Shown one piece after another: positions 12,001 to 15,000 of a DNA stretch of 21,533 nt. Position 1 is the stretch's first letter, and each line of letters begins with the position of its first letter. The position numbers are program-made. The stretch spans positions 1 to 21,533 of IMG/VR virus record IMGVR_UViG_2869953405_000008; one strand, 5' to 3'. This DNA is from a virus. Taxonomy: Duplodnaviria > Heunggongvirae > Uroviricota > Caudoviricetes.

Positions 12001-15000
12001 GGGATTCACCATGCCAGTTTCTTTTAACAAACTCCCCGCAAAACAGACAACTGTCAACCGTCTGAATTGTGAGACATTTAAAAAAAAGGCCCGCAAAAGC
12101 GAGCCAGGGAAAATAAGTGTGGCGCGTTGTACTGGATTCGAACCAGTGACCGATTGCTTAGAAGGCAATTGCTCTGTCCGGCTGAGCTAACAACGCATGA
12201 TGCAGATAATGGACCGCCATCGGGGACTTGAACCCCGCGCAGCCAGCTTCGAAGGCTGGCGCTCTTTCCTGATGAGCTAATGGCGGTATGTGATGGTGGC
12301 CCTTGCTGGATTTGAACCAGCGACCTGGCGATTATGAGTCGCTCGCTCTCACCACTGAGCTAAAGGGCCGGGAGCCGCATAATAACGACGCGTAATTAAT
12401 TCTTCAATATCATCCGTTCTGGCTGACTAAATCCTGTACTTCCCGAACCGTCTGCTCAAAACGTTCAGTCTCCAGCTCAACGCCAATTGCACGACGCCCG
12501 AGCGCCAGTGCCGCTTTCACTGTCGAACCCAACCCCATGAAAAAATCTGCAATCAGGTCACCCGGACGACTGCTAGCGCTGATTATCTGCTGCAGCATTT
12601 CTGCCGGTTTTTCGCACGGATGTTTCCCGGGATAGAACTGCACCGGTTTATGCGTCCACACATCGGTATACGGCACCTGCACCGTCACGCCAAAATACCG
12701 CCGCAGATGTTTATATTCACTCAGCAGCTCCGCATACTGCCGGTTCAGTGAGGTATACGTATCCACCAGCTGGTGGTGGAGCTTTTCCAGTTCACCACGC
12801 CGATGCTTCTCTTCTGCCACCCGGGCAAACAGCGCCTGTAATTTCAGATAATCGCTTTCATTCGGCAACTGCCACTGACCGGCACTGAACCAGTGCGACA
12901 CCATGTTTTTCTTTCCTGTGGCATCTGCAATCTGTTTTGCCGTTATCCCCAGGGCAGCTCGCGCATCACGAAAGTAAGAAATCAGCGGGGCCATCACATG
13001 CTGTTTCAGTGCACTGCCCTTCGCCGCATACCCGGCATCTTTCGGACGATACGGCCCCTGATAATGTTCCGCGAACAGAATGCGCTCTGTGGCGGGGAAA
13101 TACGCCCGCAGGCTTTCCTTGTTGCATCCGTTCCAGCGTCCGGACGGCTTCGCCCAGATAATATGGTTCAGCACACTGAAGCGTTCACGCATCATGATTT
13201 CGATATCAGATGCCAGGCGATGACCACAGAACAGGTAAAGACTTCCGGCAGGTTTCAGCACCCGCCAGAACTGCGCCAGACACTGGTCCAGCCACTTCAG
13301 GTAATCATCGTCGCCCTTCCACTGGTTATCCCAGCCCTCAGGCTTCACTTTAAAGTACGGCGGGTCCGTGACTATCAGGTCAACAGAATTTTCGGGTAAC
13401 GACCGGATAAATTCCAGGCAGTCGGCGTTGATTAACTCACAACTGGATATTTTTACAGTATTAAGCATGGATCATTAAGCCTGTCTCTGATAGGCTCATT
13501 CTGCTTTTGCGCAAAGCAGTGGGCCTGAGGTTTGCTTGTGAACCCAACGCATGAGCAGATGGCTGGTGGGTGCCCCTAACACCCACCAGCCGCCCATTTA
13601 CCACAAATAAAAAAGCCTTCACTGCGGAAGGCGTCTGTAACAACCGAACTGATAGTCTGCCAGACCCGCCATAACCAGCTGGGTCAGTATTAACTGGCAG
13701 CGTTCGCGTGAAAGGTAAGTATTCTGCGCTATCTCCCCGACTGTCGCCGGTTCGGTAACGCTTAATTCATTAAACACCACTCTGGCGGTTTCTGTCATAT
13801 CCTGCTGTTTTAGCATGTCTTTTCCTTTTCCGGTTAACGTGACACACCAATAACTCTTGTCGAAAAAGCCAGCAAGCTGAAAGACAGGTATTCACCGCCA
13901 CCAGCGCGTTTACTGTACTGACGCGATTTCAGTCATAAAAAACCCGCTCGGCGGCGGGTTGTAGAAACTCTTCTAACGTCAGGCGTAAAACGCCCATCGT
14001 TATGACGAATTTACCACAGATTCCGGAAAAATCAACCTTGTTACCTAGTTACCTTTTTTAACTGCCGCTCAGCCCATGCTTCTTCAATATCAAACCGGGT
14101 CACCAGCGCATCATAAAATTTCTTAACTGTTTTTTCCCATGACGCGCGTGTTATCTGGTTTGTCACCTCGCATATAGCATTAAATGCCTCCGTTGATGGT
14201 AGTCTTTCATAGCCACGACCACCACAACGCTGGCAGTCTCTGATAACAGGCATACCACGTTTTACCGACTCTTCACGATGAATGGCGACACCACGCCCAC
14301 GGCAATCCTTACAGGCGGTGGAAACCTCACCCTTTCCGCCACACTCCGGACAGGCAACTTTTACCACCTCCCTGACTTTTTTCCATTCTTCCCAGTAAGA
14401 CGGATACACACCTTTCGTACACTTTGCCCATACCGGCGGCTTACCATCCGGATACTGGATCTTGTTTGTAAAAACCTCGCTTTCAATAAATTTTTTTCCG
14501 TGACAGCAGGGGCACTGTTTTTTGCTCGCCGCGCTACGGGCATAATCTTCAAACGCATACGAAGCCATAATACGCATCACTGCCGGTTTTATTTCTGCCG
14601 GGAGTTTTCTTAACGCCGCCACGCGATCACACCGACTGAGTGCATATTCTGTCAGCAATTCTGTTGCCCGCTCTCTGTCATTCATACTAATGCCCATTTT
14701 CCCAAGGAACGCAGAAACCCCCATCTCAGCCCGATTCTGTGTCATGCCCTGCGCGGCCATCACATCAGTGATACTCAGCGCATCTTTCGACGTTGAGGCC
14801 GATGCATCAGTCAGGCCGGGGGATTTTGGGGAGTAGTATTTCGGTAAATCTTCCAGTTTCATTTTTTGACCTGCCCTTCAAGCATTATGGGATAAATCTT
14901 CACCCCCAGACGTCCACCAGATACTGGCTGAGCACGAACGATATTGATTTCATCAAACTGCTCATCGTCCATTAGCAACCCCGCATGCGTCAGCGCATCC

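Follow-up and report, generated by a model that had tools for sequence, protein, structure and literature searches.

A predicted Q-dependent pR'-qut-tR' cassette of the lambda-Q family downstream of a long Q gene in a defective lambdoid prophage, with a possible RNA element at the 5' end of its leader

The Q-dependent late-gene cassette, as published, consists of a Q gene, the late promoter PR', a pause element that depends on sigma (SDPE), a terminator, and the late genes (PMC9388147). In phage lambda, the Q-binding element (QBE) lies between the -35 and -10 hexamers of this promoter (PMC9388147, PMC4914094) and is contacted by the zinc-ribbon arm of Q (PMC9388147), and AACGAT, a -10-like SDPE, is the site at which Q is loaded (PMC9388147, PMC4914094). 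Q proteins make up three protein families, e.g., lambda Q and Q21 are structurally unrelated and alike in function only (PMC9388147). Terminated PR' transcripts are known from lambda (6S RNA), 21, phi80, 82 and P22, and in Shiga toxin (Stx) phages of the 933W type a 258-nt PR' transcript gives rise to the 74-nt Hfq-binding small RNA (sRNA) StxS (PMC7547250). In studies of Stx prophages, usually the 933W-type PR'/qut alone has been recognised, none being found for other Q types (PMC9729726). Here, a stretch of 21,533 nt from a Caudoviricetes virus (IMG/VR record IMGVR_UViG_2869953405_000008, positions 1 to 21,533; hereafter the window) was analysed. Directly behind a gene for a lambda-type Q, it carries a unit that, judged by its sequence, is very probably an intact late-gene switch of a lambdoid prophage, namely, a Q-dependent pR'-QBE-SDPE-tR' cassette of the lambda-Q family. 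It is taken for a real cassette because of its core identity with lambda and P22, the family of its Q protein, a layout that recurs among relatives, and a selection footprint on each element. Such cassettes are textbook biology and common in E. coli prophages, including some with Shiga toxin, and the main value of the present analysis lies in annotation, i.e., in locating the late promoter, the pause/qut site and tR' for a 273-aa 'long' lambda-type Q.

The coordinates of the cassette elements are window positions on the minus strand, taken straight from the sequence. The Q gene (14862..14041) ends with the stop codon TAA at 14043..14041, and the -35 hexamer TTGATT of the putative sigma70 promoter pR' starts 5 nt past it (14035..14030), so that this promoter would lie directly 3' of Q. 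A 16-nt spacer, TTTCCGGAATCTGTGG (14029..14014), which ends in TGG and holds an extended -10 TG (14016..14015), leads to the -10 hexamer TAAATT (14013..14008), the same as in the pR' of lambda and P22. It is followed by a 6-nt discriminator, CGTCAT (14007..14002), which has the length found in lambda and varies freely in sequence, and by the transcription start, predicted at 14001 from homology to the lambda and P22 +1. Six nt past the -10 begins AACGATGGG (14001..13993, +1..+9), a predicted sigma70-dependent pause element made up of the -10-like AACGAT (14001..13996) and GGG. It is the same as +1..+9 of lambda, whose late promoter reads TTGACT-N17-TAAATT-TGACTC-AACGATGGG, and its P22 counterpart, AACGATGGA, differs from both at +9 only. 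The annotation of the P22-pbi record covers the P-late promoter, qut, the late RNA's 5' nucleotide and t-late; it puts +1 on the first A in AACGAT, with t-late lying 55-60 nt downstream. The pause element is the true hallmark of a qut site and the most diagnostic part of the cassette, and that of the window has A2 and T6 at their places in the presumed initial transcribed region.

A putative pause site and a terminator complete the unit. In lambda, the pause motif is T+14 N+15 Y+16 G+17 with pausing at +16/+17, which fixes the same +1 (PMC9191641). In the window, TACG at +15..+18 (13987..13984) is a perfect match to the T-N-Y-G consensus from that study and lies one nt farther downstream than in lambda; the pause would be expected at about +17. 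Between the promoter and the late genes, a terminator scan and folding point to an intrinsic terminator, tR' (13960..13937 including the T tract). Its 7-bp stem AACCCGC/GCGGGTT (13960..13941) has five GC pairs, which form the core CCCGC/GCGGG (13958..13954 and 13947..13943), and the arms enclose a 6-nt loop, CGCCGA, and run into a T6 tract at 13942..13937 (+60..+65). The hairpin folds at -11.2 kcal/mol and starts 48 nt past the -10, and the terminated leader RNA is predicted to be roughly 65 nt long.

The 273-aa protein encoded immediately upstream on the same strand is assigned to the lambda-Q family by a Pfam PF03589 match of 179 bits (cutoff 26.7 bits), by alignment, and by a PDB search in which it matched, in two blocks, the lambda Q structure 7UBM (E 3.5e-41). 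The first block pairs residues 1-113 with residues 1-113 of lambda Q and the second pairs 182-273 with 116-207, so that residues 114-181 form a 68-aa insertion at the zinc-ribbon arm's base; its two extra CXXC motifs resemble the zinc-finger domain of DnaJ. Substitutions at G39, L202 and T206 of lambda Q abolish antitermination (PMC9388147), and the equivalent positions are invariant in a 13-sequence alignment of the Q family. The insertion may alter how the Q-binding site is laid out. A GGAAT-like half-site is also present in the window spacer, 3 bp nearer to the -10 than the GAAT of lambda.

On the proposed mechanism, RNA polymerase with sigma70 would initiate constitutively at the extended -10 promoter TTGATT-N16-(TG)n-TAAATT, starting with the A at 14001. 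Sigma region 2 would then rebind the -10-like AACGAT at +1..+6 on the non-template strand, resulting in a scrunched pause at about +17. Without Q, the polymerase would escape, terminate at the hairpin and T tract, and free the RNA of about 65 nt. With Q, the spacer DNA would be bound, the candidate site being CCGGAATCTGTGG (14026..14014), whose position is equivalent to that of the lambda QBE, and Q would load onto the paused complex. The Q-loaded complex would resist terminators, and transcription would proceed into the late region. Start site, pause position, Q-binding site and Q-dependent read-through are all inferred here.

The proper references for the window cassette are lambda and P22. 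Beside the Q family, TAAATT, the discriminator length of 6 nt and AACGATGGG at +1..+9, the pR'-qut-tR' unit of lambda (the 6S RNA unit) shares with the window the T-N-Y-G motif, a downstream intrinsic terminator, and a CGTT complementary to the 5' AACG. It differs in its -35 (TTGACT vs TTGATT), in its spacer, which has 17 nt and lacks an extended -10 TG where the window has 16 nt with TG and an unrelated QBE sequence, in the length of the terminated RNA (about 194 nt vs about 65 nt), and in its Q, which lacks the extra CXXC-rich 68 aa beside the DNA-binding arm. P22, with P-late/qut/t-late and the gene 23 protein (AF527608), is alike in the Q family, the core elements and the short leader, its terminator T tract lying at +55..+59 compared to +60..+65 in the window; unlike the window, it has a lambda-type spacer and QBE, a short Q (207-aa type), and a terminator hairpin unrelated in sequence. 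The initial annotation had proposed an alignment with lambda, 82, 21 and 933W. The lambda part of this comparison was borne out by an identical -10, discriminator length and +1..+9, whereas 933W-type phages share the terminator hairpin only; comparison with 21, 82 and 933W is uninformative because their Q proteins come from unrelated families.

To place the cassette within its family, Q homologues were gathered from a tblastn of phage records (249 records), from one genome per species and from viral contigs. The locus search by protein alignment gave close relatives of the first sequence only, and the diversity came from tblastn and separate queries. The loci span Escherichia, Salmonella, Klebsiella, Erwinia, Pantoea, Kosakonia, Buttiauxella and others, with Q proteins 33-60% identical to that of the window, and 22 of the 27 distinct lambda-Q-family loci have the same order of elements 3' of Q: a -35, a spacer of 15-18 nt, a TAnnnT -10, a gap of 5-7 nt, a pause element that has A2 and T6 and continues with GG or AG, and an intrinsic terminator. 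The T tract of the latter lies at +48..+72, for which the window is typical; lambda is the outlier of the family, with its terminator at about +190 (194-nt leader). The survey yields a recognition rule (the -10, 6 nt, A-A-N-N-N-T-G-G, and a terminator within about 70 nt) that could close the gap in late-promoter annotation for Stx prophages other than the 933W type. Within E. coli the cassette is widespread, most of the 351-bp stretch across it (13850-14200) being present in 1,410 of 5,426 complete genomes, about a quarter. Strain O17_K12a, for example, carries it at 99.7% identity.

Spacer sequences are shared within Q clades and differ between them. Lambda and P22 have TWTTGAATAAARTTGGG, the window clade has TTTCCSGAATCTGTGG, and a large third clade, from E. 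coli, Shigella and several other genera, has TTCAAAAAANNTGG. This clade-specific pattern is as expected if the spacer serves as the Q-binding site.

Variation among close relatives was assessed per column in 81 loci whose Q is 88-100% identical to that of the window (43 unique sequences). In the promoter region, all 5 nt between the stop codon and the -35 are variable, followed by none of the 6 columns of the -35, 4 of 16 in the spacer (each at low counts), 3 of 6 in the -10 (singletons only), and all 6 in the discriminator, which is hypervariable. In the pause element, 2 of 9 columns vary, namely, +3 and +4. In the terminator, the counts are 2/7 for the 5' arm, 5/6 for the loop and 0/7 for the 3' arm, and all 28 nt past the T tract vary. 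Column variability thus follows the functional map, and this is the strongest evidence that selection acts on each element and against coincidence. The variants of the pause element, AATGAT, AATAAT, AACAAT, AACTAT and AAAGAT (relatives L024, L032, L033, L040, L042 and others), leave A2 and T6 unchanged, a pattern to be expected of a site that would be read by sigma region 2. Several of these variants are closer to the consensus -10 TATAAT, and such variants might lead to a longer pause.

Some observations speak against a working late promoter at this site. Its hexamers match the consensus at 8 of 12 positions with a spacer of 16 nt, and because of this 8/12 match it is missed by a standard sigma70 consensus scan, which called no promoter anywhere in 12500-15500. 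The -35-like TTGACT found in lambda just 5' of the pause element is not present in the window, which has TTCGTC instead. The spacer sequence is unlike the lambda QBE, and since that resemblance is lacking, Q binding there would follow from position only. Furthermore, the prophage is defective, with three IS600 copies and a late operon that has been cut off, and this genome may have ceased to use the cassette, intact as its sequence is. As for the -35-like TTGACT of lambda, it is an accessory feature, at which sigma region 4 is repositioned, and many relatives in the clade have TTGCCC or TTGCTC in its place.

In view of the 8/12 match, the empty standard scan, and the fact that a terminator would be nothing unusual behind the last early gene, the hexamers might be a chance match and the hairpin might merely end the early transcript encoding Q, with no late promoter present. 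The hexamers on their own are indeed weak evidence: in a relaxed ranking of both strands of 13400-14900 the site comes out on top with 9.5 vs 9 for the runner-up, and this rank hinges solely on the extended -10 TG. The case for the promoter depends on homology and conservation, and these make a chance match very improbable. TAAATT-N6-AACGATGGG, which is identical in lambda and nearly so in P22, occurs once in the window, with up to 2 mismatches allowed, vs 0.04 expected (TTGAYT-N15-18-TAAATT: once vs 0.07 expected); the promoter elements are near-invariant in the 81 loci, in contrast to the hypervariable 6 nt between the -10 and +1; and 22 of 27 family loci have this arrangement behind Q.

With the predicted Q-dependent cassette thus preferred, most of what the initial annotation had said of this unit stands. 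It had placed TTGATT-N16-TAAATT right after Q, for which the coordinates (14035..14008) are accurate, and a GC hairpin with a U-tract about 50 nt later, which is found 48 nt past the -10 with a T6 tract. Its reading of the two as a lambda late-promoter-type unit with a short terminated transcript is supported by the identity with lambda and P22 and by the recurrence in the family, and its call of Q by the Pfam match (PF03589, 179 bits) and 7UBM (E 3.5e-41). The pause element had escaped it. A better promoter match elsewhere in the interval, which it had named as a finding that would speak against it, did not turn up: the relaxed scan of 13400-14900 gave no promoter candidate better than TTGATT-N16-TAAATT.

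The terminator also marks a boundary between modules. In a megablast against phages, the alignments divide exactly at it: phages with the same Q (mEp460_ev081 and others) align from Q as far as window position 13935, many Stx2 phages that have a different Q gene match it from 13960 on, and the two sets overlap in the hairpin only. Stx2_14040, with a 126-aa Q, and Sakai Sp5, with a 144-aa Q of the 933W type, have a homologous hairpin and unrelated sequence 5' of it; the shared part is AACCCGCC..GCGGGT6-7, with 87.5% identity over 24 nt between the window and Sakai Sp5. Past the T tract, the 81 clade loci continue with at least 10 different sequences. In 45 loci this is the module of a 65-aa open reading frame (ORF) and a methylase gene, as in the window, and in 24 it is a second shared sequence, which leads straight into tRNA-like sequence in mEp460_ev081. 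Since clade homology ends right past the T tract and is replaced there by at least 10 downstream sequences, tR' is the recombination joint between the Q module and exchangeable cargo modules, which bears on how toxin genes fall under different Q alleles.

This exchangeability also bears on whether the promoter could be an ordinary constitutive one, followed by a leader-peptide or other attenuator that governs the 65-aa ORF and the methylase gene independently of Q. Starting from an ATG at +4, an ORF of 22 codons extends through the terminator, and Rfam gives a sub-threshold Trp_leader match (20.6 bits vs a gathering score of 41 bits, E 0.039). However, the ATG belongs to the pause element, a Shine-Dalgarno sequence is impossible upstream of +4, and with at least 10 alternative sequences downstream the leader goes with the Q module and not with the 65-aa ORF. 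A leader-peptide mechanism is unlikely because the 22-codon ORF is not conserved in lambda, which reads ATG GGT TAA, or in P22, where a stop follows after 6 codons; attenuation independent of Q is accordingly the least probable of the alternatives weighed here, with hardly any chance of being right.

Under the preferred Q-dependent cassette, the terminated leader would have a structure of its own. In its minimum free energy structure, the 5' AACG (14001..13998) pairs with CGTT at +24..+27 (13978..13975) around an inner hairpin; the segment +1..+28 folds at -11.1 kcal/mol with its 5' end fully paired, the domain spanning +1..+27. The inner hairpin, G7..U21, was considered as a conserved element and rejected, as its variants in the clade mix wobble pairs and mismatches and it is absent from other clades. 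The terminal pairing is found across the lambda-Q family, where the first 4-5 nt of the late transcript, i.e., the pause element, are complementary to a segment at +14..+27. In the deep clades, the pairings AACGA:TCGTT, AATGA:TCATT, AACAG:TTGTT, AAGAA:TTCTT and CATAG:YTATG are compensatory (L001, L004, L106, L111, L134, L227 and others). Counted by 5' end, AACG has a CGTT partner in 96% of 51 unique leaders, AATGA of a deep clade has TCATT in 7/7, AACAG or AACAC has TTGTT in 3/3, AAGAA has TTCTT in the single leader concerned (1/1), and CATA has TATG in 6/7.

To test for covariation, 61 leaders were aligned with MAFFT, unsupervised. The helix has two variable pairs, one being CG in 47, UG in 7 and UA in 5 leaders and the other GC in 48, GU in 4 and AU in 3, and 9 cells are changed on both sides vs 1.8 expected, a number reached in 0 of 500 shuffles, though the independent events behind it are few, perhaps four. 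Of the helix cells, 84% pair, vs 21-45% with the partner slid, and when the 5' tetramers are swapped among leaders, the self-complementary ones number 44 on average (maximum 55) instead of 67. RNAalifold on the same kind of alignment, i.e., the MAFFT leader alignment, predicted no consensus structure, and recent single mutations in the window clade are uncompensated in the helix. A terminal helix of 4-5 bp is short and thermodynamically marginal by itself, and its support comes from the covariation counts and the single-sequence folds. No mention of it was found in the searchable literature, a search that does not reach the older literature. It is therefore put forward tentatively, as a serious possibility short of a probable one, that the terminated late leader is more than a by-product and that a family-wide 5' stem-loop with a compensatory partner constitutes an RNA-level element. 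If true, one of the best-studied regulatory units would gain a feature at the RNA level. As a best guess, the 5'-terminal stem might guard both the leader RNA and the long mRNA of the late genes against decay that depends on the 5' end; alternatively, the stem-loop could shape an sRNA-like molecule.

The latter touches on the idea that the main role of the unit in the lysogen is to make a trans-acting sRNA like StxS, with antitermination in parallel, which is compatible with the Q-dependent cassette. Transcription from PR' is constitutive, and its terminated RNAs accumulate in lysogens; among them is StxS, which binds Hfq (PMC7547250). The predicted RNA of 65 nt is sRNA-like, with its 5' stem-loop, an A/U-rich single-stranded stretch and a Rho-independent terminator; +19..+41 is much more conserved in the clade than the discriminator or the loop, and the cassette's presence in roughly one in four complete E. 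coli genomes would fit as well. The 933W-type Stx phages (Sakai Sp5/Sp15) are comparable to the window in functional logic, in the slot upstream of tRNAs and stx, and in the homologous terminator hairpin, but have an unrelated 144-aa Q and an unrelated promoter and qut located inside the 3' end of Q, and their 258-nt leader, processed to 74 nt, has no similarity to the window 5' of the terminator. No homology to the body or seed of StxS was found in the window leader, of which the 24-nt terminator hairpin alone aligns with Sakai Sp5. Conservation of the leader could also be explained by the needs of pausing and Q loading or by recent common ancestry. No Rfam family reached threshold on the leader, and at relaxed thresholds the weak matches, to Trp_leader, isrK and similar families, have the appearance of generic terminator resemblance. 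An sRNA role for the window leader is possible but unsupported, and as the main role in the lysogen it is considered rather unlikely. The Pas sRNAs were considered as candidates for a pR' leader and rejected: PasA and PasD/STnc100 flank the sialate esterase gene instead.

Downstream of the cassette on the minus strand, the first ORF (65 aa, 13816..13619) has a weak TrmB-like winged-helix match and is part of the downstream module, not of the Q module, the same module being found behind several Q types in Stx2 phages. A second intrinsic terminator (13632..13615, minus strand) lies at its end, ahead of the methylase gene. The intact order is seen in the Stx2a phage Stx2_EH1910, in which Q, the cassette, the 65-aa ORF, the methylase gene, three tRNAs, stx2AB and nanS follow each other, placing the cassette upstream of stx2. 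In the window, the slot matching stx2AB contains two copies of the Rfam sRNA family STnc100 (161 and 124 bits; 10100-10309 and 11854-12043, minus strand) that flank an IS600; they are probably the RNA elements R1 and R2 of the initial annotation. STnc100 has been related to PasD sRNAs near PF03589 Q genes in a 2026 preprint. Next come nanS-p, the holin gene and DUF1327, on the minus strand.

That everything downstream (methylase, tRNAs, R2/R1, nanS-p and holin) would be Q-dependent, RNA elements included, as the initial annotation had it, is not established and probably too broad. It is an extrapolation because of the second terminator at 13632..13615, because dRNA-seq (differential RNA sequencing) of Sakai Sp5 revealed a separate promoter for the tRNAs (PMC7547250), and because the STnc100 copies may be independent units. 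IS600 also interrupts and cuts the late operon: one copy (10476-11632, plus strand) interrupts it between the tRNAs and nanS-p, and another (5749-6905, plus strand) cuts it off behind holin/DUF1327, joining the region to genes for tail-fibre assembly. Past DUF1327, the interrupted operon thus has neither an endolysin gene nor structural genes left to express. The third IS600 lies upstream of the cassette (18084-19240, minus strand). The IS600-interrupted form of the 9700-12500 stretch was found in 0 complete E. coli genomes, and its uninterrupted form is common; the window looks like a defective prophage of an IS600-rich host, possibly Shigella.

Some minor features of the window were noted as well. 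The tRNA at 12294-12369 (minus strand) is called tRNA-Met (CAT) by ARAGORN, and in Sakai Sp5 the corresponding gene of that tRNA trio is annotated as ileZ, a tRNA-Ile whose anticodon is CAT, so that a lysidine-modified Ile tRNA is probable here. The positions 733-918 (+) and 954-1526 (+) take in matches to isrK-like and C4 antisense RNAs and, just downstream of these, a gene for a Rha-family regulator, and a hok/sok toxin-antitoxin locus is located on the minus strand at 16876-17201.

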